A stretch of 64,000 nucleotides of DNA from Candidatus Magasanikiibacteriota bacterium (GTDB taxonomy: Bacteria > Patescibacteriota > Patescibacteriia > Magasanikbacterales > UBA922). The notes under the pieces were generated by a model. The model was given only the letters and a program-made list of their open reading frames with translations. It made no database searches and was not told where the DNA came from. The DNA lies in the NCBI GenBank assembly GCA_003482855.1, contig DMXO01000002.1, positions 28,060-92,059 on the forward strand. Reading direction: 5' to 3'. Each line of letters opens with the position of its first letter. Position 1 is the first letter of the stretch. Position numbers and translations under genes: made by a program. This document shows positions 3,095 to 64,000 of this stretch, piece after piece.

Positions 3095-3131
3095 ACAAAT
3101 AATATAATCAAATAAATATTAATGCATCACT

Positions 3132-3338
3132 CTATGTTGCCTGCGCTTTATAGCCTACTTCTTCCACTGCACGCTCAATGATTCCTGTATCAACAATATC
3201 CTCTGATTCAATAGCTAATATCCCCGTAGAAAAGTCTACAGACACATTTTGAACCTGATTGAGCTTTCCAACTCTTTTCTCGATAAGACGCGCGCAGGAT
3301 GCACAATGCATTCCGGTGATTTTATATTCTTGTTTCAT
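3132..3338 (-). CDS. copZ: Copper chaperone, HMA domain protein
   Basis: 68 aa with a GMHCASC motif, immediately downstream of copA. Confidence 0.85.
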   Translation of the reverse strand: MKQEYKITGMHCASCARLIEKRVGKLNQVQNVSVDFSTGILAIESEDIVDTGIIERAVEEVGYKAQAT

Positions 3339-3348
3339 ATATACTAAG

Positions 3349-4689
3349 TTATTCTACAATTATCTTTCCTCGCACCATTCCCATTCCACAACTGAATTGA
3401 AAGGTTCCTTTTTCCGAAGGAGTAAATGTAACAATGTTTTCTCCTTTGACGAGTGGTTTATTGATTCCAAATGCCTTTGAAACAATACGGTTCGTACATC
3501 CGCTTACCTGTTGACCATCAATAACCCACCTGACTGGCGTTCCCTGTTTTACGCGCAATGTGCTTGGATTAAACCCGCTATAATCCACTGCCATCTGTAT
3601 CACTTGTTCATCGCCGGTAACGACAACCTGATTTGTATTGTTTGATATATCTACGTCTCCCGTTCCAATACCCAACACTGTCTTTCCCGAAGAAAATGTA
3701 AACCAAGCAAACAGGATAACAATAAGCGCGATTGATTTCTGGAATATAGGCCTTTCTTTTTTATCCGCTTTGCTACTTGCCTTTCCTACAAACAACAATA
3801 CGGGCACTGTACCGAGCGCGAATAAAAACATGAGTAGTAAACCGCTGACAAAACTGCCTGACGCAATTGCCAACAGTTGCATGCTTTGAGTAAACCCACA
3901 GGGTAAAACGAATGTGAACGCACCCAGTACAACGGGCATAAGTGGGTGTTTTGATGATTTCATCTTATTCCACAATTTCATACTTCCCTTTGGCAGATGA
4001 ATGCCAAATCGAGTCACTGATGATAATATGCCACCAATTTGAAGGCCAAGCATGAGCAAAATAATCGCGACAACAATGGTAAACCAACCCATAAATCCCG
4101 TGGACACAGTAAATTGTGATCCCATGATACCTAAGAGCCCACCCAATACAGCAAATGATGTCAATCTACCAATATGAAACAACACATGCGGTTTCCATTG
4201 TGTCCATGGTGATGTTTTTTCACCCGAGTCCTGTTTGTAGAGTGCTCCAAATGACATGACCACCGCGCCTACAACCGCAAGACAGGTGGATAACGATGCG
4301 ACAATTCCAACGAGAATTGCGGTGCCATATCCGACTGCTTGTGTATCCACATTGAGCGCATCCAATACTCCGATCCACTTGAGATATGCATAGACCAAGT
4401 ATAATCCCAGGACTACAAACACTGCATATGCCCAGTGTTTGAAAGAAAACTTTTGTATCTTGGATTGTGCCAATTTTTCTAACGAAGCTGCATATCCGAT
4501 CTTATTCAATCGGCGTTGAATATCAGGTAATGGGATTTGGTCTAATTCATGCGTAATATACGCCACTTGCTTTTTATGATCAGCTTTTACCTGCGATATG
4601 CCACCTATTTCTTTGAGTTCATCTGCTATCAATACTTCACATGACACACAGGTCATACCTTGCAAATAAATTATTTCTTTTTTACTCAT
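3349..4689 (-). CDS. HMA domain / polytopic membrane permease (TauE/SafE-like) / C-terminal cupredoxin-like domain fusion protein
   Basis: N-terminal GMTCVSC HMA motif, multiple hydrophobic TM segments, C-terminal beta-rich domain ending FQFSCGMGMVRGKIIVE (Cys/Met-rich, cupredoxin-like). Confidence 0.55.
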   Translation of the reverse strand: MSKKEIIYLQGMTCVSCEVLIADELKEIGGISQVKADHKKQVAYITHELDQIPLPDIQRRLNKIGYAASLEKLAQSKIQKFSFKHWAYAVFVVLGLYLVYAYLKWIGVLDALNVDTQAVGYGTAILVGIVASLSTCLAVVGAVVMSFGALYKQDSGEKTSPWTQWKPHVLFHIGRLTSFAVLGGLLGIMGSQFTVSTGFMGWFTIVVAIILLMLGLQIGGILSSVTRFGIHLPKGSMKLWNKMKSSKHPLMPVVLGAFTFVLPCGFTQSMQLLAIASGSFVSGLLLMFLFALGTVPVLLFVGKASSKADKKERPIFQKSIALIVILFAWFTFSSGKTVLGIGTGDVDISNNTNQVVVTGDEQVIQMAVDYSGFNPSTLRVKQGTPVRWVIDGQQVSGCTNRIVSKAFGINKPLVKGENIVTFTPSEKGTFQFSCGMGMVRGKIIVE

Positions 4690-5214: not shown

Positions 5215-7122
5215 TTACTCAGGGCTACGTGAATGTACGGTAAATGTCAATGCGTTATCTATCCATTCCTTCAAATGAGCCCAATTGGCATCATATAGGC
5301 CAATTGAGACTCTATATCTACCTGGCTGGGGAGCAATCCATCCCAGATCAAAAGTCTGTTGTTTATGACTATCAATTACCACATTATCATAATACTGTTG
5401 AGCAAGGTGTTCTCCGCCGTTCACATCGTCATGTATCTCTATATCAATAAGGATAGGATCACTTTCAGCTCTATTGGTGACAGTGGCTGATATAGTCACA
5501 AGATCTGCTGCATACACTTCGTGTGGAGAAATAGTCGTACTAATAAGCTGTGGTGATGAACCAGTGCCCATAGAGACAGGTACGTCACCCACGATAATGG
5601 TAGTCTTTGCTTCATCTGAAGCACCACGATCATTTGAAACGCTTAGTATTACTGTATATGTACCATCTGCAACAAATATATGCTGTGGGTGTGTTTCATG
5701 AGAAATTTCACTGCCATCACCAAAATCCCAATTATATACCGTGCTATATCCTTGTGGATCAGTGGTGCCAGAGCTTGAGAAGCTCACTTCAAGAGGAGTA
5801 CTGCCTGTTTGTGGCGTAGCATCCAACACAACATTTGGTGGTCTGTTCGTGTTGTAAGTAATACGTCTCACCTCACCTGCAATGATAGATATGAAATAAA
5901 CGCTGCCGTCTGGGCCAGTAAAAAAATCTACAGGACCATCAGTACCCACCAAAAAATTTTCCACATGAGATATAACGTTATTGTCTTTATCAAACACAAC
6001 ACGCTTTACTGTGTCTCTCCCAAATACACCAAAGAAATAATTATTTTGATAAGGCATTGGATACGCTGCACCAGAAAATGTACCACCAATAAGTGCAAAA
6101 GTACTTGTGGCAGTATGTTCATTGGGAATTGTATAGAGTGGATCTACATAATTCTCTGTCACACAATCATAATTAGGCTGTGCCTCTCGTCCTTCTCTGC
6201 ATGGCCATCCATAATTTCCTCCTGGTACGCCAAGATTAATCTCCTCTGTATCATACCATCCCACATCACCAATATACATCTGATTATTGAGAGGATTAAA
6301 ATTAAGTCGAAATGGATTTCTAAATCCATATGCATACACTTTTGACTGATTTGCATGAGGGTCTCCATTATAAAACGGATTATCAGCAGGACCAGTACCA
6401 TCAGTATTTATCCGCAAAATCTTCCCTGCCAAAATTTGTGTGTCAAAAGTATCCAGCGCGTGGGGATCTACAATATCAAATCGAGATCCATCTGCTAGGC
6501 TTGCGTACAATTTTCCATCTGGACCAAACCGTAATCCTCCAACACTGTGGCTCCCAGCATCGCTTGGAATGCAATCTGTACCTGCAGGAAAGTCATTACA
6601 CGAAGGATGCCCGGCATCTCCACCCACAGAACCTACCAATATAATTTTGCTATCTGGATCTACAGTATCACCATGTGTAGTCAATCGTATAATACGACCG
6701 GTCTTTGGTCCTCCAAAATCATCTGGATTATTTTCATATGTGTAGCTCAAATATATGTATCCATTTTTTTCAAAGTCCGGATCGATAGCAATACCCAAAA
6801 GTCCATGATCAGCATATACATTCACATCATTCAAAACAATAAGCGGAGTAGACAAAAGTACGCCATTTTTTATCACACGCACAGTACCAATTTTTTCTGT
6901 CACCAATAGACGCCCATCTGGCGTGAATGCCCCAGCAACAGGGACGTTTAACCCACTAACTACTGTCTCTATGGCAAATGCTGAAGGATTCGTATCATCC
7001 ACTGCTGCTATTTCGTCCACGTTCCGGTTTGTTGTTCCTTTTGACACAACTACGTACAGCACTATCCCTATCACTATACCAAACGCAAGAAGCCATGTTG
7101 TTTTGACATTATGTTTAGCCAT
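5215..7122 (-). CDS. Membrane-anchored PQQ-dependent sugar dehydrogenase-like beta-propeller (GSDH family) protein with PKD domain
   Basis: N-terminal TM helix, GLLGIAIDPDFEKNGYIYLSYTY-type glucose/sorbosone dehydrogenase motifs, WDFGDGS PKD motif, C-terminal beta domain. Confidence 0.65.
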   Translation of the reverse strand: MAKHNVKTTWLLAFGIVIGIVLYVVVSKGTTNRNVDEIAAVDDTNPSAFAIETVVSGLNVPVAGAFTPDGRLLVTEKIGTVRVIKNGVLLSTPLIVLNDVNVYADHGLLGIAIDPDFEKNGYIYLSYTYENNPDDFGGPKTGRIIRLTTHGDTVDPDSKIILVGSVGGDAGHPSCNDFPAGTDCIPSDAGSHSVGGLRFGPDGKLYASLADGSRFDIVDPHALDTFDTQILAGKILRINTDGTGPADNPFYNGDPHANQSKVYAYGFRNPFRLNFNPLNNQMYIGDVGWYDTEEINLGVPGGNYGWPCREGREAQPNYDCVTENYVDPLYTIPNEHTATSTFALIGGTFSGAAYPMPYQNNYFFGVFGRDTVKRVVFDKDNNVISHVENFLVGTDGPVDFFTGPDGSVYFISIIAGEVRRITYNTNRPPNVVLDATPQTGSTPLEVSFSSSGTTDPQGYSTVYNWDFGDGSEISHETHPQHIFVADGTYTVILSVSNDRGASDEAKTTIIVGDVPVSMGTGSSPQLISTTISPHEVYAADLVTISATVTNRAESDPILIDIEIHDDVNGGEHLAQQYYDNVVIDSHKQQTFDLGWIAPQPGRYRVSIGLYDANWAHLKEWIDNALTFTVHSRSPE

Positions 7123-16177: not shown

Positions 16178-16199
16178 CTTGGTATGGGAGTGTTTTTTG

Positions 16200-16228
16200 T
16201 TGACAAAAACATATAAATTTGCTAACTT
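16200..16228 (+). promoter_or_regulatory. Sigma70-like promoter P1 of GC-rich island A (TTGACA-17-TAACTT)
   Basis: Perfect -35 hexamer, exactly 17-nt spacer, TAnnnT -10. Confidence 0.45.
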
Positions 16229-16276
16229 AATGTCCGTATTCATCCGCCAAATGGTGGGTTTCTCAAAGGAGGACCG

Positions 16277-16489
16277 ATGTCCCAGGACTCGCGCCACCGC
16301 CAGATCAGGCTCGTGACCCCCAACCCCCGCCGGAACGAGGTCAACACGCATATGTGCGAGCTGACCACCTGTGTCTGTCGCGGCAGGCGGGCAGCGTTGA
16401 CCTTCCGTCATGTGGAAGGCACACTCGCTTGGCTCTGCCCGAGCGCCAGCCGGCAGATCGACGCCACCACCTCGCGGCGGGTGGGCTGA
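16277..16489 (+). CDS. Island A gene 1: small Cys-containing protein (70 aa), unknown function
   Basis: AAGGAGG SD 4 nt upstream of ATG. High GC with G/C-rich third positions, in contrast to the AT-rich backbone. Cys at CELTTCVC and WLCP. Confidence 0.5.
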   Translation: MSQDSRHRQIRLVTPNPRRNEVNTHMCELTTCVCRGRRAALTFRHVEGTLAWLCPSASRQIDATTSRRVG

Positions 16490-16502
16490 CAAGGTCAACA
16501 GA

Positions 16503-16621
16503 GCCACAAGTCGAAGGAGGGAACGGTTTTGCAAGCGTGTATGCACGCCTTCAAAACCCAAAAGCCTATATGGCACACAAGGGAGGACGCATCGCTTGTA
16601 GATCCGCGTCCTCCTTCGACT
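16503..16621 (+). other. Structured inverted-repeat element unit 1 (agtcgaaggagg ... cctccttcgact)
   Basis: Perfect 12-bp terminal inverted repeat enclosing about 90 nt with internal hairpins. Left arm contains an SD-like GAAGGAGG. Begins right after the stop codon of gene 1. Confidence 0.55.
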
Positions 16622-16682
16622 ACTATCTTCAGCAAAATGATGAGAATAGTAGTAAAAACCACTCCAAGTAGTACTCGGCGTG

Positions 16683-16711
16683 GTTTTTTTGTTGACAAAT
16701 TCTTCTCTATA
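16683..16711 (+). promoter_or_regulatory. Sigma70-like promoter P2 of island A (TTGACA-17-TAATCT)
   Basis: Perfect -35, 17-nt spacer, TAnnnT -10. Embedded in an AT-rich spacer between the two GC-rich genes. Confidence 0.45.
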
Positions 16712-16762
16712 CATTAATCTCTCACTTGTCGCTTCAACCGCCATCACCACAGGAGGTGAAAG

Positions 16763-17161
16763 ATGGCAGGTAGCATGGTTTCGGTGAACATGGTACTCAT
16801 GGGCAAAGACTTCCAGATGGAAGTCACTGGGGTTCTCCACTCGTCGCGTGCGATGCGACAGAATGGGGGATCCCGACGTGGGACCGTCCTGATCGGCCGG
16901 ATCATCCAGGGCGAGATGACCGTGATGGACGAGGTGTGGGTGCTCAGGAACTTCGACCCCAACACCGAACCGATCCACGACAGGGTCATCAGGATCGAGA
17001 CCAGTCGAGCCTCCAGAGACAAGGCTGGCGTGAACACGATGGTCGGGGTCTGTCTGAGTGTCTCTTCCATGGGCGACATCATCGGGCGCGCGGCCGCCCG
17101 CGCCTACGACGCGGCTATGATCGAGCAGCGGCGCCAGATGCCGCCGCGTCCGGTGGCGTAG
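16763..17161 (+). CDS. Island A gene 2: 132-aa protein resembling a standalone EF-Tu domain-II-like beta-barrel
   Basis: AGGAGGTG SD 4 nt upstream. GTVLIGRIIQGEMTVMDEVWVL ... RVIRIETSRASRDKAGVNTMVGVCLSV pattern parallels EF-Tu domain 2 (GTVVTGRVERG..VG.EVEIV ... AGDNVGVLLRGV). High GC3. Confidence 0.5.
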   Translation: MAGSMVSVNMVLMGKDFQMEVTGVLHSSRAMRQNGGSRRGTVLIGRIIQGEMTVMDEVWVLRNFDPNTEPIHDRVIRIETSRASRDKAGVNTMVGVCLSVSSMGDIIGRAAARAYDAAMIEQRRQMPPRPVA

Positions 17162-17280
17162 CCACAAGTCGAAGGAGGGAGTGGTGACGATGGCAACAGC
17201 CTCAATCACCGCACGGCCCGATATTACATCGGGCAACGCAACAAGGAAGGCGCGTACGTTCATCGCGCCCTCCTTCGACT
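17161..17280 (+). other. Structured inverted-repeat element unit 2 (same 12-bp arms as unit 1)
   Basis: Starts at the stop codon of gene 2. Same gccacaagtcgaaggaggga left end and cctccttcgact right end as unit 1, with a different interior that has its own hairpins. Contains ATG 17190 after the SD (37-codon ORF running into AT-rich DNA). Confidence 0.55.
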
Positions 17281-17312
17281 GTTTTGATTATCAAATTTGG
17301 TAATAAGAATAG

Positions 17313-17344
17313 CAAAAAGAACCCTTAGTAAGGGTTCTTTTTAA
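17313..17344. terminator. Bidirectional hairpin terminator (agaaccctt agta agggttct + T-run)
   Basis: 9-bp stem with 4-nt loop flanked by A and T runs. Confidence 0.55.
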
Positions 17345-17359
17345 TGCGCTTATTTCTGT

Positions 17360-24261: not shown

Positions 24262-24319
24262 AGTAGTAATGTTATTTTGTTAAAACAAAGTAAGTATACA
24301 ATAAAATAGATTATGTATC

Positions 24320-24345
24320 AAAAAATCCACGCTATATACGTGGAT
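24320..24345 (-). terminator. Rho-independent terminator of GC-rich cassette B (atccacg ctatata cgtggat + T-run on minus strand)
   Basis: Perfect 7-bp stem, 7-nt loop, followed on the minus strand by TTTTTT. Confidence 0.6.
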
Positions 24346-24391
24346 CTATGTTGGAAACTAAGAGGGCTGTGGACGCTGCGATTGTAGCCCT

Positions 24392-24730
24392 CTACTTGTT
24401 GCCGGCCTCGGCGAATTCACGGAGCAGGGACATGGCGAGATAGCCCGCGAGCCACCCGACCTGTCCCATGCCAGTGCGCCGACTGTCGACGTCATGGAGC
24501 ATCCGCCCGACGATCTCCTCGACCGTCTGGAGACCCGGCGAGAATGTTATCGCATCCTGCGAACGCATCTCGATGAACTGAGCGGCCTCCTCCTCACTGT
24601 GGAAGAACCATCTCATGAGCTTGGGGAGAAGGTGCTCGGGAACAAAACTCTCCTTGAACCGGGAGAGGCACCCTTGCGCCAGCTCGTAGCGCGCCCCTGT
24701 CGTGAGCTTACCGATCGCGTCCATGGGCAT
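24392..24730 (-). CDS. GC-rich cassette B gene: 112-aa hypothetical protein
   Basis: High-GC ORF with G/C-rich third positions, flanked by a consensus-like promoter and terminator. No recognisable family. Confidence 0.45.
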   Translation of the reverse strand: MPMDAIGKLTTGARYELAQGCLSRFKESFVPEHLLPKLMRWFFHSEEEAAQFIEMRSQDAITFSPGLQTVEEIVGRMLHDVDSRRTGMGQVGWLAGYLAMSLLREFAEAGNK

Positions 24731-24776
24731 TTATCCAATTTCCATCGCAGCGCCCTCTTAATTTCCAAAACATGAC

Positions 24777-24805
24777 TTTATATCATGATTAATACAAAAA
24801 GTCAA
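24777..24805 (-). promoter_or_regulatory. Sigma70-like promoter of cassette B (TTGACT-17-TATAAA, minus strand)
   Basis: Read on the minus strand: TTGACT at 24805-24800, 17-nt spacer, TATAAA at 24782-24777. Confidence 0.45.
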
Positions 24806-24907
24806 TAGTAAACATATATTTCAAACTATCTATATGGGATTTACAACTCCACTCTTCTCACCTATAATACACCACAATATAATACTCTATATTCATATAT
24901 AAATCTT

Positions 24908-28208: not shown

Positions 28209-30794
28209 ATGTTTGTCGGACTATTTCAATTCACGGTCATTGACGAAGCTCTCTTGGCACAGCCATCGTCGCCTATAGACGATGCCATGCTCGTCAATAT
28301 GACCATCATAGGTTCTGTACTCCTCCTTATTGTTGGAGTTGTTTTTATAGTACGCTCGTTTACGAGATCAATTTTCAAAATTAAACATGCATTTGATCTC
28401 ACCGTTCTCAGTATCATGGTACCAAAAGAAAAAAAATCAGAAGGTTCAAGCAATGCATCTCAAGAAGAACGATTGGAGCAAGTTAGAGAAGAGATAGGAA
28501 TCACTGAAACAATCTTTGCTACAGTAGCAGGTCTGCGTGCTCAGCGTGGTATACACAAATGGTTCAAAGGAAGAAATGACCATTTTTCTTTTGAGATGGT
28601 CGTACACAACAATCTCATCAATTTCTATGTCGCGGTACCACACAAGCTCAAAGGATTTTTGGAACAACAAATAAATGCGCAATATCCGTATGCTCATATA
28701 GAGACAATGGTTGATTATAATATATTTACCAACAAGAGTTCTATTGTGGGGGCCTATATTGTAGGCAAAAATGTCCATGTATTCCCTTTCAAAACATACA
28801 AAAAAATGGACTCAGACCCTCTCTCATCTCTCCTCAATGTACTTGCGCGTGTCCATGAACAAAATAGTTCTGCTGCTATACAATTTGTGGTACGTTCTGC
28901 TCATCGCAAATGGAGACGCAAAGGCGTGCGCATTGTGCGAGAAGTAAAAAAAGGAGAAAAATTTGAACATGTGGTACACAGAAACTTCTTCACCAAAATA
29001 CTCAAACAGGTGGGCAAAGGTATGGGAGAACAATTGGCAACCAAAGATTCTACCAACCTCAATCAACCACAAAATCACTACCAACTCTCTGCTATGGAAG
29101 AGGAGATGCTCAAAGGTGTTGAAGAAAAGTTGAGCAAAGGAGGTCTGGATGTGACGATACGTATGGTGAGCGCTTCAGACAATCCCGATGTTGCACGCAT
29201 GAACCTAGATAATTTAGTCAATTCATTTAGCCAGTACAATCTGTATCGTTATGGTAATTCATTTGGCGCAGTCATACCAAAAAACCAAAAAACAATTATA
29301 CAAGATTTCATTTACCGTTCATTCAATGAACAAAGAGATACACTCCTCAATACCGAAGAAATGGCGAGCCTTTGGCATCTGCCACTTCATTCGACTGAGG
29401 CACCAAATATCAAATGGCTCGGTGCACGCAAACCACCACCACCTCCCAACCTTCCAGCTGAGGGCATTCTCATGGGTCATATTCCCTATCGCGGACAAGA
29501 TTATCCGGTGCGACTCAAAGATGCTGACAGACGTCGCCACCTCTATGTGATTGGAAAATCTGGCAGTGGCAAATCCGTACTCATACAAAATCTTGCGGTG
29601 CAAGATATACAAAATGGCAAAGGCGTTGCGATAATTGACCCTCATGGAGACTTTGCAGAATATGTCCTATCTCATGTACCCAAAGAACGCGCTGATGATG
29701 TAGTTATCTTTGATCCATCAGATTTCGAACGTCCTATCGGCCTCAACATGCTCGAAGTAAAAGATGAAGACCAAAAGGACTTTGCTGTACAAGAAATGAT
29801 ATCTATATTTTATAAGTTGTTCCCTCCAGAGATGATTGGGCCTATGTTTGAACACAACATGCGCAATGTCATGCTCACACTTATGGCAGATTTGAAAAAT
29901 CCAGGAACCATTATAGATATTCCACGCATGTTTACCGATGATGATTATGTGAAGATGTATCTCAAGAAGCTCAAAGATCCGGTCGTACGTGCATTCTGGG
30001 AAAAAGAAATGGCAAAAACAAGTGATTTCCACAAATCAGAGATGCTTGGCTATTTGATCTCCAAAGTCGGTCGATTTGTCGAAAATGATATGATGCGCAA
30101 TATCATGGGCCAGCAAAAATCTGGCTTTGATTTCCGCGATGTCATGGATAAACAAAAAATTCTTATTGTCAACCTCGCAAAAGGAAAAACAGGGGAGGTA
30201 AATGCCAAACTCATCGGTCTCATCATCGTGGCAAAATTACAAATGGCTGCCATGGGACGTGCTGACTTACCTGAAGATGAACGCAAAGATTTTTATCTCT
30301 ATATTGATGAATTCCAAAACTTTATTACTGATTCTATCGCTATTATTCTTTCCGAGGCCAGAAAATACAGGCTTGATCTCATCATAGCTCATCAATATCT
30401 CAATCAACTGGTAAATGAAAAAGGCAGAGCAGAAATAAAAGATGCTGTCCTTGGTAATGTAGGTACTATTTGTTCATATCGTATTGGTCCCGAGGATGCA
30501 GATATTTTGGCGAAGGAATTCGCGCCTACATTTGGTGCGTACGATCTCATGAACGTAGAAAAGTTTACTTGCAATACCAAACTTCTGGTCGACAATCAAG
30601 CAACCAAACCGTTCAATATGTCCGTATATGCTCCAGAGAAAGGTAATATTCAACTTGCCAGTGCCATCAAACAACTTTCTCGCCTCAAATTTGGTCGTGA
30701 TCGTAGTATTGTGGAGGCAGAAATCATGGAACGCACCAAGCTAGATCAAGGTACAAGTGAAAGTAAGGATGATATGATTGAAGCGAGCCTTTGA
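28209..30794 (+). CDS. Membrane-anchored P-loop ATPase of the VirD4/TraD/TraG coupling-protein - HerA/FtsK (DUF87) superfamily
   Basis: N-terminal TM helix. C-terminal half has Walker A GKSGSGKS, IIDPHGDF motif, Walker B LYIDEFQNF. N-terminal about 440 aa domain of unknown function. Confidence 0.55.
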   Translation: MFVGLFQFTVIDEALLAQPSSPIDDAMLVNMTIIGSVLLLIVGVVFIVRSFTRSIFKIKHAFDLTVLSIMVPKEKKSEGSSNASQEERLEQVREEIGITETIFATVAGLRAQRGIHKWFKGRNDHFSFEMVVHNNLINFYVAVPHKLKGFLEQQINAQYPYAHIETMVDYNIFTNKSSIVGAYIVGKNVHVFPFKTYKKMDSDPLSSLLNVLARVHEQNSSAAIQFVVRSAHRKWRRKGVRIVREVKKGEKFEHVVHRNFFTKILKQVGKGMGEQLATKDSTNLNQPQNHYQLSAMEEEMLKGVEEKLSKGGLDVTIRMVSASDNPDVARMNLDNLVNSFSQYNLYRYGNSFGAVIPKNQKTIIQDFIYRSFNEQRDTLLNTEEMASLWHLPLHSTEAPNIKWLGARKPPPPPNLPAEGILMGHIPYRGQDYPVRLKDADRRRHLYVIGKSGSGKSVLIQNLAVQDIQNGKGVAIIDPHGDFAEYVLSHVPKERADDVVIFDPSDFERPIGLNMLEVKDEDQKDFAVQEMISIFYKLFPPEMIGPMFEHNMRNVMLTLMADLKNPGTIIDIPRMFTDDDYVKMYLKKLKDPVVRAFWEKEMAKTSDFHKSEMLGYLISKVGRFVENDMMRNIMGQQKSGFDFRDVMDKQKILIVNLAKGKTGEVNAKLIGLIIVAKLQMAAMGRADLPEDERKDFYLYIDEFQNFITDSIAIILSEARKYRLDLIIAHQYLNQLVNEKGRAEIKDAVLGNVGTICSYRIGPEDADILAKEFAPTFGAYDLMNVEKFTCNTKLLVDNQATKPFNMSVYAPEKGNIQLASAIKQLSRLKFGRDRSIVEAEIMERTKLDQGTSESKDDMIEASL

Positions 30795-39399: not shown

Positions 39400-40344
39400 C
39401 TACTTGAGTGGAATTTTTTTGAGGATATTTTTTAATTCTTCCAGTGTACTTATTTTCATCAATTCTTGTCTCAACGCTTTCATACCAGATATGCCCTTGA
39501 AATAATGGGCTAGATGCTTCCTAAATGTAACAAGATTTCCATAGTATTGTTCATGCAGCTTCGCATGTTGCAAAACTACATCAATAATATCTTGAAGTTG
39601 GGGATATTTGGATATTTGGATATTTGGATATTGTTGAAATATCCATGGATTCCCTAGCGATCCACGCCCAATCATGACCCCATCAGCACGAGTGACTTCC
39701 AAACAATGTTTCATATCTTCTCTTGTTACTATATTTCCATTTGCAATGACGGGAATTTTTACTAATTCCTTTACTTTCCCTATCATCTCCCAATTTGCTA
39801 CACCAGAATAACCTTGGGATTTTGTCCTACCATGTATAGAAATAAGATCAGCCCCAGCCTGTTCAAGTTTTGGGGCAAACTCTAATATTTCATCATCTTT
39901 TGACCATCCCAGCCGCGTTTTTATACTCACTGGAACGCCCAAATTTGCGTTTTTGAGAGCTTTTACTATGGCAATGGCTCTATCATGGTCTTTCATGAGA
40001 GCCGCGCCAGAATCGGCCTTCCCTGCAATCTTGGGAACAGGACAACCCATATTCACATCTATACCATCTGGCTTATACTTTGTTACTATAATTTCTGCTG
40101 CCTTTTGTATCCTTTTAGGATCTGCACCAAACAACTGCAAAATAATTAGCCTTTCACCCATATCAAATTCACACATTTTCAATGTTTTTTCATTTCCCCT
40201 TACAATCGCTTCTGCACTTACCATTTCACGAAAAATGACAAAATTATTTCCAGAAACCTCCCGACAAATACGACAAAACGGTCCATCAGTCATATCGGCC
40301 ATAGGGGCAAGAACAATTATCGGTTTTTTGTCAAACCACGTCAT
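39400..40344 (-). CDS. dus: tRNA-dihydrouridine synthase
   Basis: LAPMADMTDGPFCRICRE, DVNMGCP, FMN-binding TIM-barrel motifs. Confidence 0.88.
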   Translation of the reverse strand: MTWFDKKPIIVLAPMADMTDGPFCRICREVSGNNFVIFREMVSAEAIVRGNEKTLKMCEFDMGERLIILQLFGADPKRIQKAAEIIVTKYKPDGIDVNMGCPVPKIAGKADSGAALMKDHDRAIAIVKALKNANLGVPVSIKTRLGWSKDDEILEFAPKLEQAGADLISIHGRTKSQGYSGVANWEMIGKVKELVKIPVIANGNIVTREDMKHCLEVTRADGVMIGRGSLGNPWIFQQYPNIQISKYPQLQDIIDVVLQHAKLHEQYYGNLVTFRKHLAHYFKGISGMKALRQELMKISTLEELKNILKKIPLK

Positions 40345-41156
40345 AAAGGACTTTTGATCTTTTTTAAATTTGGATTTGTTACATGCGTATATATTTGTGT
40401 TGTTTTTATGCTTGCGTGGCCGAGAAGTTCTTGTACAAAACGCACGTCTACGCCATCTTCCAGCAAATGTGTTGCAAAACTATGTCGGAGCGAATGAAAC
40501 GTTGCTTGTTTTTGTATTCCTATTTTTGCAAGCGCGACTTGAAATATTTTTTGAGGCGTTGCTGATGTTAATTTGCCCCCTCGTTCACTTTCAAAGACAA
40601 AATCCTCTCCTTTTTTACATGCCATAATATCCTTCAGATCTGGAATCAATGATTCTGATAATGTGGTTATCCGATCTTTTCTCCCCTTTCCACCTCGTAT
40701 TGTTATTACTTTTTCAAATATATCAATATCTCGTACACGCAAAGAAATTAATTCACTTACACGGAATCCGGATCCGTATGAAATAGCGAGCATGAGTCTA
40801 TGTTTTTTATTTTTTGGCGCGGAAATAATAGATACTATTTCATTTCTATTCAAAACAACAGGCAATGCTTTGTTCCTTTTTGGCATGCGAAATGGTATGA
40901 AATCCGCACGCTGGTATAATTCTCTATACAAAAAATTAAGTGCATTCGCATACAATGCAACCGTTTGGGGCGCAGAACCGCCATCTTTTTTATTCAATAA
41001 ATATAGCTCTATCTCATCCCGAGAAATATCTTTTGGTGGTTTTCCGAGTGCACGATATATATCCTTATATACATTTGTATATGCCTCTATAGTTCGCGGG
41101 CTATAATTGATTAGCCTCATTTTTTGTGTTACTATATCTATAAGATTTTTTTGCAT
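40341..41156 (-). CDS. Tyrosine recombinase, XerC/XerD-like (phage integrase family)
   Basis: R..HxxR..Y catalytic residues (HSLRHSFATHLL...LGHASIKTTQIYTHV). Stop overlaps the dus start by 4 nt. Start chosen at MQKNL. Confidence 0.8.
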   Translation of the reverse strand: MQKNLIDIVTQKMRLINYSPRTIEAYTNVYKDIYRALGKPPKDISRDEIELYLLNKKDGGSAPQTVALYANALNFLYRELYQRADFIPFRMPKRNKALPVVLNRNEIVSIISAPKNKKHRLMLAISYGSGFRVSELISLRVRDIDIFEKVITIRGGKGRKDRITTLSESLIPDLKDIMACKKGEDFVFESERGGKLTSATPQKIFQVALAKIGIQKQATFHSLRHSFATHLLEDGVDVRFVQELLGHASIKTTQIYTHVTNPNLKKIKSPL

Positions 41157-41269
41157 ATTCAGACAATAAATATTCAGTATAATATACCAAAATGGACTAT
41201 TATACAAGAACATTCCGTATAACTGCTAGTTATGTGAAATTGTGGCAAAACTTAAATGAAGTAAAGGGT

Positions 41270-47743: not shown

Positions 47744-48316
47744 ATGATAATATACAATGAAAATATGAGTAAACAATTTCAAATTTCAAATTTCAAATTT
47801 CAAATTTTTGTCGTGCTACTGATAACCATAGGCATAAGTGCCCGCCTTCTACCACATCCGGCAAACTTTAGTCCAGTAGCGGCGTTGGCAATATTTGGTG
47901 CATTATACTTGCCACGGAAATGGACGCTGGTATTGCCTGTGTCTATTATGTTCTTGAGTGACATCATTATTGGTTTTTATGCGTGGCAAATAATGGCAAG
48001 TGTATATGCATGTTTCATTCTCACCAGTGGTCTTGCGCTCTGGGCAAAAAAATATAAAACATTTAGCACTATTTTGGGTACCACCGTACTTGGTTCGATT
48101 ATATTTTTCCTCGTAACTAACGCAGCTGTCTGGGGCTTTGGTACCATGTATACACATAATTTCTCTGGCCTTTTGCAAAGTTATTACATGGCACTCCCCT
48201 TTTTCCGCAATAGTCTTTTAGGAGATTTATTTTATACAGGAATTTTTGTCGGGATAGCAGAGGGAATACGGTATCTCTATATAAAGCAGGCAACCTATGA
48301 ACCAAACAAAACGTAA
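47744..48316 (+). CDS. ECF-transporter S-component-like membrane protein
   Basis: 190 aa, 5-6 TM helices. Genomic linkage with DUF4430 and prenyltransferase-like genes, as in cobalamin/cofactor-uptake loci. Confidence 0.4.
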   Translation: MIIYNENMSKQFQISNFKFQIFVVLLITIGISARLLPHPANFSPVAALAIFGALYLPRKWTLVLPVSIMFLSDIIIGFYAWQIMASVYACFILTSGLALWAKKYKTFSTILGTTVLGSIIFFLVTNAAVWGFGTMYTHNFSGLLQSYYMALPFFRNSLLGDLFYTGIFVGIAEGIRYLYIKQATYEPNKT

Positions 48317-48548
48317 ATGGGATCTACTGACAAAAGAAGAACGCGACAACGCTATAACAAAAATCATAACGTACTTTGAAACCGAACGAGATGAAAAAAT
48401 AGGCATCATAGCAGCAGAAGAACTACTTGATTTTTTTCTCGAACTTACTGGAGAAAAAATACACAATACAGCTATACAAGAATCCAAAGATTGGTTCAAA
48501 AAAAGACTAGAAGTAATGGAAAATGATTTCGAAGAATTGCTCAAATAA
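48297..48548 (+). CDS. DUF2164-family protein
   Basis: 83 aa, ITYFETERDEKIGIIAAEELLDFFLE pattern. Confidence 0.5.
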   Translation: MNQTKRKWDLLTKEERDNAITKIITYFETERDEKIGIIAAEELLDFFLELTGEKIHNTAIQESKDWFKKRLEVMENDFEELLK

Positions 48549-48561
48549 AAAATCTACATCA

Positions 48562-48590
48562 TAAAACTCCCATCTAAGGGAGTTTTTATT
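48562..48590. terminator. Hairpin terminator (aaactccc atctaa gggagttt + T-run)
   Basis: 8-bp stem followed by TTATTTTT. Confidence 0.55.
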
Positions 48591-48669
48591 TTTGAACCGG
48601 CGCCGCTTCGATCGCCGGTTATTTGTGCGTTCAAAGCGGCGGTGCTCTTTGCATGCCGCATCCTTTCCG

Positions 48670-49158
48670 TCAGCCCGCCGCGTTGTACACGACGAGGATG
48701 ATGGTCGCCAGCGTGTGCAGGTACTCCGCACGCACGACCACAGTGAACTGGGACGAGTCGTTCACCGACCAGATCGGAAATCGACGGTCGACGGGAAATT
48801 CGTCCCCTTCGGCCTGCTTACCACGAAGGTCATAGACCCCCGGGATGGTCGCGCGCCAGAAGGGAACCACGTTGCCCGGGTTGAGCACGCGATCCGAGAC
48901 GACCGAGACGACCCATTCCGTACTGTCGTGGTACAGTCGGGTCATGGTGATTTCGATCCCCTTGTGGGAGATGCGCGCGATCGGACGGACGAACCCACCG
49001 AGCACACGCTGTCCGATCACTTCGGGTTCCCCGATCTTGAGTGGCCAGGACAGTGTGGACTGTTGCTCGAACGCCTTTTCCACCGTCCTCACTGCCATGA
49101 TGTCGGGATGGGTGCTGTTGCACCTTACGACCCACTGACTGAGCTTCTTGGGGGACAT
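48670..49158 (-). CDS. GC-rich cassette D gene: 162-aa hypothetical protein
   Basis: High-GC/high-GC3 ORF. AAGGAGAA SD 4 nt upstream of ATG 49158. Own promoter and hairpins (48595-48641) after the stop. The track ORF begins 10 codons earlier. Confidence 0.5.
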   Translation of the reverse strand: MSPKKLSQWVVRCNSTHPDIMAVRTVEKAFEQQSTLSWPLKIGEPEVIGQRVLGGFVRPIARISHKGIEITMTRLYHDSTEWVVSVVSDRVLNPGNVVPFWRATIPGVYDLRGKQAEGDEFPVDRRFPIWSVNDSSQFTVVVRAEYLHTLATIILVVYNAAG

Positions 49159-49202
49159 ATTCTTCTCCTTTCCCCCACGTTGACACACACAAAGAGCATT
49201 TC

Positions 49203-49231
49203 AAAATATCATTACTAAGTGATATTGTCAA
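49203..49231 (-). promoter_or_regulatory. Sigma70-like promoter of cassette D (TTGACA-17-TATTTT, minus strand)
   Basis: Perfect -35, 17-nt spacer, TAnnnT -10. Confidence 0.45.
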
Positions 49232-49301
49232 GCTAAATAATAAAATAAAAAACAACGCCCTTGAAGCGTTATTTTTATCTATTCTAAATCTGTGCAAAAT
49301 G

Positions 49302-50738
49302 TTACCCAAAATCATCAAACTTAATCTCCTCACCCGTATCAGTCACTATACGACGTTTCTCTTCTGCGTGCTTCTCTTCGACAAGCGTTGATTCTACTGT
49401 AGGCAAGCCACCAATACCCTCAACTGGCAAACCAATCGGTGGTTCGGCAACCTTGCTTGATGCTTTCTGGACTTGAGGAGTTTTGACATGAGACATGGGG
49501 AAATGCCACAGCGTAGCAAGTTCTTCTATATTCAAAACACATGGATTAGCACCAGCTTTTATTTTTCTCTTCTTATATGCTTTGAAAAAATGATTCTGTT
49601 TATGAATTTTCTTATTCTTGTTGCGAATATTTGTGGTACTCTTCGGAACTATAGAATTCGCTGTAGGGATATTAAATTGATTTATTGCACCCACGAGTGC
49701 ATTAACACCGCGCGCAGTATTGAATACCTCTTTTCGTGCTACGTATACACCACGCATTTTTACTTTGAATCCTATTTTAGCAATTTTTTCTTCCATCGCT
49801 TCAATCAATTTTGATTGACCCGGCGTGAGATATTTGAGCTGATTCTTCTCTTCGTGGTCGCTCGACGAACTCTCTCCTCCCTCACTGCGGATGCCACCGG
49901 TGAGCTGGGCATTGAGCTCTTCGAGACTTCTACCCACTTCTTTGGTAATGAAATTTTCTGTGAGAAAATTAAGCTTGCTTTTGTGAGATTCCTTTTTCTC
50001 TCCAATAAGTTCTTTTATTTTCTCTATAGACTTTTCCTTCCAATGATTATCTGTCGGTTGTACTAAAATCTGAAACCACATCTGCTCACCATACCCAATA
50101 CGCGTGAAACTCTCCAGAAATGTACCCATAGGATCTTTGAGTACTGTATCTTTGGAAATGCTGTGCTCAAATTCGCGATATGAACGTATAGGGAATGCAT
50201 CGTGTTCAGCTAGAGAAAAATCTCCAATCCATATATCGTGTGTATCATTGGGATATTTATCTGGTACCTGAGTCACATAATCCTCTACTTCAGTGATTTC
50301 TGCATCAGGATACTGGGCATAGACAGATGCTTCTACAAGATCTCTAAATGTCTGTTCAGTCCATACCAAAAATTGGATATACCCTTCAATGCTAATAATT
50401 TCAAAACTAAACCATTTTTGCTTGTAGCCCTCTCGAAATTTGCCACGCAAATCCGGATGTTCAAATGCGCCAGCAATATGACTAAACATCTGCTCAACAG
50501 CTTTTGGTGTTTGGACGTTCTCCTGAGGAATGTCGATAGCAAGCAAAGTAAATTTCCAGTGATGTGTATTTTTTTCTTCGACATACTCAGCATACAGATG
50601 AATACCCGCATATGCCAAAAGCCACACAAGGATAATCCAGCCAACAATAGCAAATAACTCAAAGACAACCACTATAGCTGGTTGTTCAAAAAAACTAATC
50701 ACGGTAAGTATGTCTATGTACATGAAACCTAAATCCAT
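49302..50738 (-). CDS. Membrane-anchored paralog of the N-terminal (non-ATPase) domain of the 28209-30794 VirD4-like protein
   Basis: N-terminal TM, shared blocks AQYP..., EELATLWHFP vs EEMASLWHLP, KLIEAMEEKIAKIGFKVKMRG vs AMEEEMLKGVEEKLSKGGLDVTIRM, ends PIGLPVEG vs PNLPAEG. No Walker motifs. Confidence 0.5.
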   Translation of the reverse strand: MDLGFMYIDILTVISFFEQPAIVVVFELFAIVGWIILVWLLAYAGIHLYAEYVEEKNTHHWKFTLLAIDIPQENVQTPKAVEQMFSHIAGAFEHPDLRGKFREGYKQKWFSFEIISIEGYIQFLVWTEQTFRDLVEASVYAQYPDAEITEVEDYVTQVPDKYPNDTHDIWIGDFSLAEHDAFPIRSYREFEHSISKDTVLKDPMGTFLESFTRIGYGEQMWFQILVQPTDNHWKEKSIEKIKELIGEKKESHKSKLNFLTENFITKEVGRSLEELNAQLTGGIRSEGGESSSSDHEEKNQLKYLTPGQSKLIEAMEEKIAKIGFKVKMRGVYVARKEVFNTARGVNALVGAINQFNIPTANSIVPKSTTNIRNKNKKIHKQNHFFKAYKKRKIKAGANPCVLNIEELATLWHFPMSHVKTPQVQKASSKVAEPPIGLPVEGIGGLPTVESTLVEEKHAEEKRRIVTDTGEEIKFDDFG

Positions 50739-54153: not shown

Positions 54154-54182
54154 TTGACAAAATGGCATTTTTGTGATATTAT
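54154..54182 (+). promoter_or_regulatory. Sigma70-like promoter of cassette E (TTGACA-17-TATTAT)
   Basis: Perfect -35, 17-nt spacer, 5/6 -10. Confidence 0.5.
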
Positions 54183-54214
54183 CGCCACGGATTTTCCACC
54201 ACGTGAGGCCAAAA

Positions 54215-54367
54215 ATGGCCACGACCACGACCCTCGTGTGCATGGAGTGCGGACACCCGGAGATGGAGGTCATCGAATACGGTGACCACGAGGAACGGGT
54301 CAAGTGCCCCAAGTGCGGGCACGAAGCCTCGGTTCCCCCGGGCGCTCAGCCCGGTACTCCGGTCTAG
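54215..54367 (+). CDS. GC-rich cassette E gene: 50-aa zinc-ribbon mini-protein
   Basis: GAGG SD 6 nt upstream. CMEC...(18 aa)...CPKC. Strongly G/C-biased third codon positions. The track ORF start at 54173 lies inside the -10 box, so ATG 54215 is preferred. Confidence 0.5.
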   Translation: MATTTTLVCMECGHPEMEVIEYGDHEERVKCPKCGHEASVPPGAQPGTPV

Positions 54368-54393
54368 CACCGGACAAAACACCCCACACGCGG

Positions 54394-54502
54394 CCCCGGG
54401 CAATCGTGCCCGGGGATGATGTCATGAAAAACCACCCAATGACTATCTGAGTTCTCAACGTATATTTGAGAATTGGGATAGGAGGTTTGGGTGGTTTTTT
54501 GT
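54394..54502. terminator. Hairpin ccccgggca atcg tgcccgggg plus long bidirectional terminator (aaaaaccaccca ... tgggtggtttttt)
   Basis: 9-bp perfect GC stem directly after cassette E. 12-bp A/T-flanked stem serving both cassette E and the secA 3' end. Confidence 0.55.
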
Positions 54503-54540
54503 TGTCTAATTTATCTTCTATTTTTATTCGTCATTTCGCA

Positions 54541-57550: not shown

Positions 57551-57579
57551 TTGACTTTTTACCATTTTTAGTGTACTTT
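57551..57579 (+). promoter_or_regulatory. Sigma70-like promoter P1 of island F (TTGACT-17-TACTTT)
   Basis: 5/6 -35, 17-nt spacer, TAnnnT -10. Confidence 0.4.
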
Positions 57580-57613
57580 ATGGGCAGAACTTTAACCCTT
57601 TGGGGGTCCTCCA

Positions 57614-57877
57614 ATGGTCAGGAACAACTGCCCCGCATGCGGGGCACAGGTCGAACACGGCACGCTCTGTGGCGCGTGCGGTCACCGGCTGGGTGAAGAA
57701 CCCGGCAACCGGCACTGCACGTGCACTGGCAACGTCTGCGTCCGCCTCCGGACGCAGATCGTCGTCCGCACGGTCGAGGTCGCTACGACCAAGGCCGACG
57801 GGACGGTGGTGCCCCACGGTACCGCCAGCTTCCTCTACGACCCCACGACCGGCCGGTCGCACCTGACGACCGGCTGA
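57614..57877 (+). CDS. Island F gene 1: 87-aa zinc-ribbon protein
   Basis: CPACG...(8 aa)...CGACG N-terminal zinc ribbon, additional CTCTGNVC. High GC3. GGGGG SD-like 7 nt upstream. Confidence 0.45.
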   Translation: MVRNNCPACGAQVEHGTLCGACGHRLGEEPGNRHCTCTGNVCVRLRTQIVVRTVEVATTKADGTVVPHGTASFLYDPTTGRSHLTTG

Positions 57878-58021
57878 CCCTCTGTCCCGCGCCCGACGCT
57901 CCCCGCGTTCGTGGGCCGGCGCGTGCTGTTCTGCGTATTTCGTGCATCAGCCCCCCTGGTGCATGAGGTACGTAGACGCGCGCGCCGGCCCTCCTTCCTC
58001 ATTATTAAACCAAAGTTACTC

Positions 58022-58050
58022 TTGACAAAGAGTGACTTTTTTGTTATTAT
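58022..58050 (+). promoter_or_regulatory. Sigma70-like promoter P2 of island F (TTGACA-17-TATTAT)
   Basis: Perfect -35, 17-nt spacer, 5/6 -10, in an AT-rich spacer between the two GC-rich genes. Confidence 0.5.
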
Positions 58051-58080
58051 CCGCCCGCTTCAAACAACCCGGGGTTCAAG

Positions 58081-58239
58081 ATGTACTGTGCCCACTGCGG
58101 CCTCATGCTCGTCATCGATATCGAAGGACATTGCCCCATCTGCGGGACAAAAATCGATGAGGCGTCGCCCTATGTGATGCCTGCGAGGCCGCCGATCGAC
58201 ACCGCCCCTACCCCCTCCGGACAGGGACAACATACCTAG
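58081..58239 (+). CDS. Island F gene 2: 52-aa zinc-ribbon mini-protein
   Basis: CAHCG...(12 aa)...CPICG, Pro-rich tail. High GC3. Confidence 0.45.
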   Translation: MYCAHCGLMLVIDIEGHCPICGTKIDEASPYVMPARPPIDTAPTPSGQGQHT

Positions 58240-58304
58240 TATCTTGCGTACGGAATTGAACATTCCAACGCGAGTGTATGTTCGTCCCGTTCATCCCTAA
58301 AATC

Positions 58305-58336
58305 AAAACCACCCTAAAAAATCGGGTGGTTTTAAA
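58305..58336. terminator. Bidirectional terminator (aaccaccc taaaaaat gggtggtt + T-run)
   Basis: 8-bp stem flanked by A/T runs. Serves island F and the hpf 3' end. Confidence 0.55.
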
Positions 58337-63497: not shown

Positions 63498-63603
63498 ATT
63501 CTAGAACAAAGATATTCTCAATCCCAGAACTCCTCGGTGTGATGTGGCACACCGGAAAATCTCCTTCCTTATACCCGCCCACATGCGGGCGTCTCCCGAC
63601 CTC

Positions 63604-63807
63604 TTACGGCTTGGGCGCCTCGCCAGTGGCACCCTTCGCCGGTTCTTCCACTGTCTCCTTCGGGGGAGACGGCGGACGAGGCGAGGACACATGTGTCTTG
63701 CCCGCATGGCGAGCCCTCGTGGCTGCGAGGCCACAGAGCCCGTCGAGCTGACGCTCGGGCCGTGCAGGGCCGTGCCCGAACTTGGTGAAGCCAGAACCCG
63801 GCTTCAT
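63604..63807 (-). CDS. Island G gene: 67-aa Pro-rich small protein, translationally coupled (ATGA overlap) to the upstream partial gene
   Basis: High GC3 ORF. Its ATG overlaps the TGA of the partial CDS 63804-64000. Confidence 0.35.
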   Translation of the reverse strand: MKPGSGFTKFGHGPARPERQLDGLCGLAATRARHAGKTHVSSPRPPSPPKETVEEPAKGATGEAPKP

Positions 63808-64000
63808 TTCTTACCCTTTCCGCGAGCCCGTCTGAGGGCTCGAGACACATCCGTCAACGGAAACCGACCCAATACCTCTGGTTCGCGATTCCAGATGGTG
63901 TTGTGGTCGTAGACGACCACCGTTTCTCCACCACTCTTGTGCACATCAGCGACATCATCGAGTCGCACTGCGCACCGTTCGAAGTGGGGACGGCGGTTGT
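63804..64000 (-). CDS. Island G partial CDS (C-terminal 65 codons; gene continues beyond the window end)
   Basis: Open minus-strand frame ...HKSGGETVVVYDHNTIWNREPEVLGRFPLTDVSRALRRARGKGKK* with no stops and high GC. Confidence 0.4.
   Translation of the reverse strand, partial: NRRPHFERCAVRLDDVADVHKSGGETVVVYDHNTIWNREPEVLGRFPLTDVSRALRRARGKGKK

Follow-up and report, generated by a model that had tools for sequence, protein, structure and literature searches.

A candidate moron-like, GC-rich accessory gene between convergent genes of a Patescibacteria chromosome

The question raised by cassette D is how a gene far richer in GC than its surroundings came to lie between two convergent genes of a bacterial chromosome, and how it has kept that composition. 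The cassette is part of a stretch of 64,000 nucleotides (nt) from a Candidatus Magasanikiibacteriota bacterium (GenBank assembly GCA_003482855.1, contig DMXO01000002.1, positions 28,060 to 92,059 of the forward strand); this whole stretch is called the window here, and coordinates are those of the window unless a relative is named. GC content runs from 0.36 to 0.62 and then to 0.40 across the cassette, the mean of the window in 200-nt segments being 0.397 (standard deviation 0.064), and the open reading frame (ORF) of cassette D, which encodes 162 amino acids (aa), has a GC content of 0.61, compared with 0.33–0.40 in the neighboring genes. The genomes of bacteria of the Candidate Phyla Radiation (CPR), or Patescibacteria, are tiny and streamlined, and these organisms rely on other cells, so that the genes which they add and keep hint at their lifestyle. 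In the concept of Hendrix and Juhala, a moron is an extra transcription unit placed between adjacent phage genes. We assign a probability of about 0.6 to the reading that cassette D is an independently transcribed, moron-like accessory gene, and an old addition made in the ancestor of at least two Magasanikbacteria lineages.

Layout of cassette D and the same slot in relatives

All elements of cassette D are on the minus strand. The putative promoter is of the sigma-70 type, with TTGACA at 49231-49226, a 17-nt spacer and TATTTT at 49208-49203, and a TG one base 5′ of the −10 element gives it an extended −10. The 44-nt leader (5′ untranslated region [UTR]; 49159 to 49202) holds the 5′ arm of a predicted closing stem, UGCUCUUUGUGUGU (49185-49198), and a Shine-Dalgarno (SD) sequence, AAGGAGAA (49170-49163), which is followed by GAAT and then by the ATG at 49158-49156, a spacing of 4 nt. 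The ORF (48670-49158; stop codon TGA at 48670-48672) encodes a protein that begins MSPKKLSQWVVRC. Downstream, the 3′ UTR contains an arm, GCAUGCAAAGAGCA (48643 to 48656), that is predicted to pair with the very first nucleotides of the transcript, and two overlapping GC-rich hairpins (48595 to 48641): H1, CGCCGCUUUG/CGAAGCGGCG (cgccgctt/aagcggcg; 48601-48641), and H2, AACCGGCG/CGCCGGUU (aaccggcg/cgccggtt; 48595-48620). The preliminary description of this locus had listed the same series of promoter, SD sequence, 162-aa ORF and overlapping hairpins, and every one of these elements is present where it was placed. Beyond the hairpins is T2 (48563-48586), a bidirectional intrinsic terminator on both strands that consists of a hairpin and a T-run and also ends the convergent DUF2164 gene (48297-48548, plus strand). 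On the other side, T1 (49276-49248, minus strand), with a 13-pair stem and a T-run, is the intrinsic terminator of the upstream gene, which encodes a 478-aa DUF8128 protein. In composition, the block from the SD sequence to the hairpins is of a donor type with ~60–65% GC, and the promoter and terminators are of the host type.

The slot is also filled in a second lineage (L006/L007; Logan SRR5894287 and JGI 3300007102), by a homologous cassette. Its protein, P0122, is encoded 3′ of a DUF8128 gene with 79% aa and 73% nt identity to that of the window, and the order after DUF8128 is a terminator, cTTGACAA-17-TATTTT..AATGCT, an SD sequence, a GC-rich ORF with a GC content at third codon positions (GC3) of 0.77-0.79, a 3′ UTR, a terminator and a convergent DUF6580 gene. 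The 3′ UTR contains AAGAGCnCCGCCGCTTTG…AAGCGGCG, which is shared with cassette D. Between cassette D and L006, CTTGACAA…TATTTT..AATGCT is conserved, which corresponds to the −35 element, the −10 element and the region of the transcript start (AATGCT), and an SD sequence stands at the correct spacing in both loci. The H1 sequence is conserved in L006, and H2 is maintained there by compensatory changes (AACCGGCG/CGCCGGUU to AUCGACG/CGUCGAU); neutral spacer, such as the sequence of T1, is not conserved.

In a more distant relative (L012-14/L018), with a flank that is 67% identical, the D slot is empty and consists of only 65 bp with one bidirectional terminator. The gene order is the same (MurB-HPF-SecA-SecD-SecF-DUF8128 → ← small gene ← DUF6580 … DUF4430), and because a relative with this synteny has an empty site, the D unit is an addition. 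This agrees with the preliminary view of a self-contained unit added in an intergenic gap with the flanking transcripts untouched. That view also held that the insert lies between two host terminators, which relatives might show side by side. The terminator in the empty site, by its shape (CAAAAAATAAAAAA-hairpin-TTTT), is the counterpart of T2; T1 (49248-49276), however, was probably not a pre-existing host terminator, since the empty site holds one terminator and not two, and would have been added with or after cassette D. The added block would thus comprise T1, promoter, leader, ORF and hairpins, and it appears to have been gained before the split of the window and L007 lineages.

The DUF2164 gene, taken earlier as the downstream host neighbor, has that position in the window but is itself variable. 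L007 lacks it and has DUF6580 immediately after the cassette, and in L012/L018 an unrelated gene of 72 aa takes its place. The intergenic area around cassette D is a general hotspot of gene turnover.

Protein, age and messenger structure

The ORF of cassette D has GC contents of 0.60/0.43/0.80 at the first, second and third codon positions, compared with a host GC3 of 0.26-0.37. Genes molded by genomes of ~60-65% GC typically show this periodicity. The codon usage is also unlike that of the host; a host-like usage would, by the preliminary description, have told against its reading. The ORF reads as a genuine protein-coding gene. A 208-aa antisense ORF that spans the whole cassette (48592-49218, plus strand) was considered and rejected; it has a GC3 of only 0.59 and no periodicity, and it is a by-product because GC-rich sequence is poor in stop codons.

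Using HMMER against 1.84 billion cluster representatives (~15 billion proteins), we identified one true relative of the D protein, the 159-aa P0122, which aligns end to end with 35-37% aa identity depending on the method (E = 2e-19; pairwise E = 4e-29). The homology and structure searches recommended earlier therefore yielded one full-length homologue and no known family or fold, and D and P0122 together would form a new two-member protein family without detectable fold relatives. D had no match in Pfam or PHROGs, and neither D nor P0122 had one in PADLOC or NCBIfam; with respect to known anti-phage defense and anti-defense families, D is thus without a PADLOC, PHROG or Pfam model match. No match was obtained when all nine cassette proteins of the window were aligned by tblastn against 50,697 phage records and 72,556 plasmid records, when D was used in a scan of viral-contig proteins, or when D was used in a sequence-profile search of the PDB. 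Scans with a protein pattern and with the 3′ UTR hairpin were empty in a metagenome collection that lacks even the L007 contig.

AlphaFold2 modeled the D protein with a mean predicted local distance difference test score (pLDDT) of 54 from the single sequence, and with a pLDDT of 57 and a predicted template modeling score of 0.60 from a two-sequence alignment. The topology of the best model is a helix, three strands, a short helix, a strand and a long C-terminal helix. In Foldseek searches with this model, matches in the PDB had E ≥ 0.05, and the best match in BFVD was to an uncharacterised phage protein (E = 7e-3, template modeling score 0.34). The protein has no signal peptide and no transmembrane span, and its maximum Kyte-Doolittle hydropathy (19-residue window), 1.6, occurs only within the charged C-terminal helix; it is predicted to be a soluble α/β protein.

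Between the window and L006/L007, the number of nonsynonymous substitutions per site (dN) is 0.146 for DUF8128 and 0.287 for DUF6580, and the silent sites of both are saturated (proportion of synonymous differences, 0.77 and 0.76, respectively). For cassette D, dN is 0.64 and silent sites are near saturation, and the D protein changes 2-4 times faster than its neighbors. At conserved residues, codon identity is about that expected by chance in the neighbors, and in D it is 0.54 versus 0.45 expected. Because the silent sites of the flanks are saturated and a homologous cassette occupies the same slot, the insertion of D is old and not fresh, which runs counter to the recent insertion implied by the preliminary description.

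GC3 is nevertheless ~0.8 in both D lineages (0.80 in the window and 0.79 in the other). The time since their split sufficed for silent sites to reach a new equilibrium, and under a simple two-state model, the GC3 of a neutrally evolving D would by now be well down towards the host value of ~0.3. Since neutral decay should have erased the GC signal, selection on RNA, DNA or codons, or re-import from a GC-rich pool, is called for, and the GC-rich, highly folded D messenger RNA (mRNA) may be under selection, perhaps because it makes the RNA more stable, or be renewed by re-import. If the composition is selected, codon or RNA-structure selection overrides a strong mutational bias; if D is re-imported, these organisms would draw on a GC-rich pool of genes that has stayed hidden and would have a route for inserting them. 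The persistence of this composition and the absence of a donor are the two oddities of cassette D that are left over.

Based on comparison with shuffled sequences, the 3′ UTR of D is more stably folded than expected (z = −4.9 for the window copy and −7.6 for that of L006), as is the whole transcript (z of about −7 in both loci). The ORF alone has a z of about −3 in both loci, using dinucleotide and synonymous-codon shuffles, and this signal is only suggestive because the host gene sod reaches −4. In both orthologues, the first ~12-14 nt of the transcript and the part of the 3′ UTR that lies just 5′ of H1 are paired in the minimum free energy and centroid structures; the predicted stem encloses the ORF and leaves the SD sequence of D free. 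In a duplex test of this closing stem, 3 of 1000 shuffles did as well in the window, and 18 of 1000 did so in L006. The closing stem and the hairpins are probably stabilizing elements of the D mRNA. As a rule for all cassettes of the window, which are described below, a closing stem was rejected; it is significant in cassette B and present in both D loci, but it is not found in A1, A2, E, F1 or F2.

We propose that cassette D was gained where two convergent genes of the chromosome leave a short gap and that a near-consensus, host-type sigma-70 promoter would start its transcript. The first ~14 nt of that transcript would pair with the 3′ UTR and close the mRNA around the ORF, the strong SD sequence would drive translation of the 162-aa soluble α/β protein, the conserved GC hairpin would come next, and the bidirectional terminator of the neighbor (T2) would end the RNA. 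Accessory genes involved in conflict or in interaction with a partner usually evolve fast, are orphans, are strongly expressed on their own and have a patchy distribution, and the product may thus be a dispensable accessory protein of one of these types.

Several points weigh against this interpretation. The promoter, SD sequence and terminator of D are consensus matches only. The model of the protein is weak (pLDDT 57), and what can be said of its function is entirely indirect, the family, structure, phage and plasmid searches being empty. The value for sod indicates that excess mRNA structure is not unique to the cassettes, and the closing stem of D relies on two related sequences and is absent from most other cassettes. 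No donor was found, an odd outcome if the gene was transferred horizontally in an aquifer that has been sequenced so heavily. With only two members of the D family, vertical descent and re-acquisition are inseparable.

Alternative explanations and known systems

By analogy, cassette D is best regarded as an accessory gene of foreign composition that resembles a moron but lies on the chromosome of a CPR bacterium, and four of the five defining features of morons are found in it, the exception being residence in a phage or prophage. Like a phage moron, D has its own sigma-70 promoter (a consensus match that is conserved in L006) and a terminator (the GC hairpin and then 48563-48586), lies between genes that are adjacent in relatives (65 bp apart in L012-14/L018), deviates in composition and has a small accessory product of obscure function or ORFan status. 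Unlike a phage moron, D is part of a cellular chromosome and has sec, murB and hpf genes, DUF8128 and DUF6580 as neighbors, exceeds its surroundings in GC rather than AT content and has been held in place across two diverged lineages, and many such units are spread over the chromosome. The upstream flank protein belongs to PF26449 (DUF8128), with thousands of homologues that are nearly all labeled Candidatus Magasanikbacteria or Patescibacteria; those of full length share at most ~70% identity with it, and the host chromosome is Candidatus Magasanikbacteria-like. The rest of the window consists of core genes (SecA/D/F, MurB, HPF, DnaG, RpoD, CysS, DnaX, TypA, SOD and FolD), ordinary functions that mark it as chromosome and not phage; it also encodes an 861-aa VirD4/TraG/HerA-like ATPase (28209-30791, plus strand).

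Recurrent replacement is an alternative that we consider unlikely. Promoter, leader start and 3′ hairpin would then make the slot a fixed landing and expression site that receives GC-rich ORFs, time and again, from an unsampled GC-rich pool, either phage-like or a partner organism, and the two D copies would be xenologues and not vertical orthologues. This would explain a GC3 of ~0.8 in both lineages despite the saturated synonymous divergence (dS) of the flanks, as well as non-coding ends that are conserved around a far more diverged ORF. Elsewhere in the window, cassettes A1 and A2 have unrelated ORFs between an identical promoter 15-mer and a common 3′ element. As for the F slot, the GC-rich ORFs found there in the window and in L018 are unrelated but share this grammar. 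ComEC is encoded directly 3′ of DUF8128 in relatives, so a route for DNA uptake exists. However, no member of such a pool was found among ~15 billion proteins or the phage and plasmid records, and no recombinase adjoins D. The sole recombinase in the window is of the XerC/D tyrosine type (290 aa; 40344-41213, minus strand; Phage_integrase E = 1e-44 plus a SAM-like N-terminal domain), which adjoins no cassette and lies 8 kb from D. The silent sites of the D ORF are also about as saturated as those of the flanks, which fits vertical descent.

A broader proposal, quite unlikely in our estimation, is that the cassettes of a CPR sub-clade form a hitherto undescribed class of genes with an insulated composition. 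Each would have a GC-rich ORF and a GC hairpin, set in an intergenic slot and expressed from a promoter of the host type, and its GC3 would be actively held at ~0.8 versus the genomic ~0.3. The cause might be a need for hyper-stable or closed mRNA, or nucleic acid or decoding adapted to a GC-rich partner cell, and the turnover of slots would then imply a dedicated route of import or replacement. In the literature we found no description of such cassettes, only general background on horizontal gene transfer in Patescibacteria, in which such transfer and genomic islands are common (PMC12455944).

Recent horizontal transfer of a gene that has not yet ameliorated is very unlikely. It would agree with the strong composition contrast, the non-host codon usage and the empty site in a relative, but the same slot holds a homologous cassette where the flanks are only 79% and 65% identical and dS is saturated, the two cassette proteins are only ~36% identical, and there is no donor homologue. 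Acquired ORFan genes or "islets" of atypical composition are commonly viewed in the amelioration framework of Lawrence and Ochman. Cassette D resembles them in that its GC content and codon usage are atypical, its distribution is patchy and the site is empty in relatives; it differs in a composition that is undecayed over a divergence that saturated the silent sites of its neighbors and in having no detectable donor lineage.

That D is a structured non-coding RNA with a fortuitous ORF is highly improbable. In AT-rich genomes, islands of high GC content often turn out to be RNA genes, and here the folding z-scores are high, with conserved hairpins and a closing stem. Against this are the GC periodicity of 0.60/0.43/0.80, the protein similarity to P0122 at E = 4e-29 and the consensus SD sequence correctly spaced in both loci; searches of the window, the cassette regions and the relatives gave no Rfam match at gathering or permissive thresholds. 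D may nevertheless be a dual-function RNA. Type I toxin genes have fold-back mRNAs with 5′–3′ pairing of the hok type, and the predicted pairing of the transcript 5′ end with the 3′ region in both D orthologues and in cassette B is similar. Unlike those mRNAs, D encodes a 162-aa soluble protein and no small membrane peptide; no antisense RNA gene for D is evident, and no antisense promoter stands out.

An integron-like or transposon-like cassette that moves by means of terminal hairpins or inverted repeats is just as improbable. An ORF with an imperfect palindromic 3′ element would suit it, as would the tandem A1 and A2, with their common closing arms and variable center, and the 17-nt and 12-nt inverted repeats that bracket cassette B. 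D shares with integron cassettes a small, often ORFan gene and an imperfect palindrome; conserved outer arms with a variable center are clearest in A1 and A2, and D has two overlapping hairpins. No GTTRRRY/RYYYAAC core, attI or IntI lies beside any cassette, however, and the attC core sites RYYYAAC…GTTRRRY are absent from the D hairpins (CGCCGCTTTG/CGAAGCGGCG and AACCGGCG/CGCCGGTT). The units are also dispersed and not arrayed, each with its own promoter and terminator, and no target-site duplication or common ends link D to the others. Cassette D is neither an integron cassette, a non-coding RNA nor a type I toxin mRNA.

There is a negligible chance that the assembly is chimeric or that GC-rich reads contaminated an AT-rich bin. 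The abrupt composition change is the sole point in favor of this reading, which is opposed by an independent assembly that is identical over both junctions, by the recovery of cassettes from several samples and assemblers, by the orthologous cassette at the same position in another organism and by junctions of D that fall precisely between functional signals. That independent assembly is a 1,611-bp contig in the European Nucleotide Archive (MEGAHIT; groundwater metagenome SRR2177950) that matches 48210-49820 exactly, including the D protein; because it spans both composition junctions, the junctions of D are real. Other cassettes of the window were found in further samples or assemblies (SRR2177968, JGI 3300002209 and ANAN16-1).

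Other cassettes of the same grammar

The preliminary description stated that cassette D has the same grammar as other cassettes, and at least eight further ORFs in the window do share it. About 6% of this 64-kb piece of core chromosome consists of GC-rich orphan mini-genes with strong predicted promoters. The seven complete cassette ORFs (A1, A2, B, E, F1 and F2 together with D) have GC3 values of 0.72-0.86, and each complete cassette has a very stable GC hairpin on the 3′ side (z from −3.6 to −9.2) followed by a separate AT-rich terminator. The cassette proteins are mutually unrelated, and no shared ends or target duplications were found between cassettes except in A1/A2. The motif TTGACN18TAnnnT occurs 11 times in the window, compared with 3.3 expected, and 0 of 100 shuffles reach 11. 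Six of the 11 sites are cassette promoters and most others lie 5′ of housekeeping genes (typA, sod and secD), so the cassettes use the promoter type of the host, in strong versions.

Cassettes A1 (70 aa; 16277-16489) and A2 (132 aa; 16763-17161) are in tandem on the plus strand (16193-17345), with the identical promoter 15-mer TTTTTTGTTGACAAA and unrelated ORFs. Their common 3′ element of ~115 nt has conserved arms, AGCCACAAGTCGAAGGAGGGA … CCTCCTTCGACT (SD/anti-SD-like), and a variable center, and the design looks modular and somewhat attC-like. A DNA scan with this A-type 3′ element gave no match. A2 has sub-threshold similarity to EF-Tu domain 2 (E = 3e-4).

In cassette B (24318-24810, minus strand), the ORF (112 aa; 24392-24730), which has a sub-threshold match to DUF6011, is bracketed from 5′ UTR to 3′ UTR by inverted repeats of 17 nt (94% complementary) and 12 nt (92%). 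The bracket (24351-24382 / 24744-24768) forms a duplex of −43 kcal/mol (z = −6.3), much stronger than that of D, and it could be a stem that closes the mRNA, or else a pair of terminal inverted repeats.

Small CxxC zinc-ribbon proteins are encoded on the plus strand by cassette E (54154-54505; 50-aa zinc-ribbon ORF at 54215-54367), which lies antisense between secD and secA, and by cassettes F1 (87 aa; 57614-57877) and F2 (52 aa; 58081-58239), which together occupy 57551-58335. In the Pfam, PHROGs, PADLOC and NCBIfam searches, zinc-ribbon matches for E, F1 and F2 were generic only; those to PHROGs were for E and F2. The 3′ hairpin of F1 (57913-57991) is near-perfect, with arms of ~34 nt and one bulge (z = −9.2).

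Cassette G (63500-64000, minus strand) runs off the end of the window and contains G1 (67 aa; 63604-63807) and a partial upstream ORF. The two genes are joined by an ATGA stop/start overlap, so cassettes can be small operons. The partial ORF has a weak 24-aa similarity to D in a nine-sequence search (E ~0.02), probably by chance.

L018 has no cassette in the D and E slots, and its F slot (hpf–secA) holds two tandem GC-rich cassettes that are divergent from secA, as in the window. These cassettes (L018 positions 2360-3400, minus strand; flank identity 67%) encode proteins of 68 aa (GC3 0.71, promoter TTGACA-17-TATTTT) and 171 aa (GC 0.53); the proteins are unrelated to F1 and F2, but slot and grammar match. 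No comparably GC-rich cassettes were found in the region retrieved from L002 or from L019/L020, which have genomes of 32% GC (flank identity 63-66%). The cassettes are thus a sub-clade feature, and their slots turn over.

In relatives with 32-35% GC (L008 positions 60-400; L019 positions 5850-6300), the gap between secA and secD contains a promoter (TTGACA-17-TATAAG in L008), ~270 nt of ~50% GC and a terminator. There is no convincing long ORF and no Rfam match in this stretch, which may encode a small RNA or a tiny basic protein.

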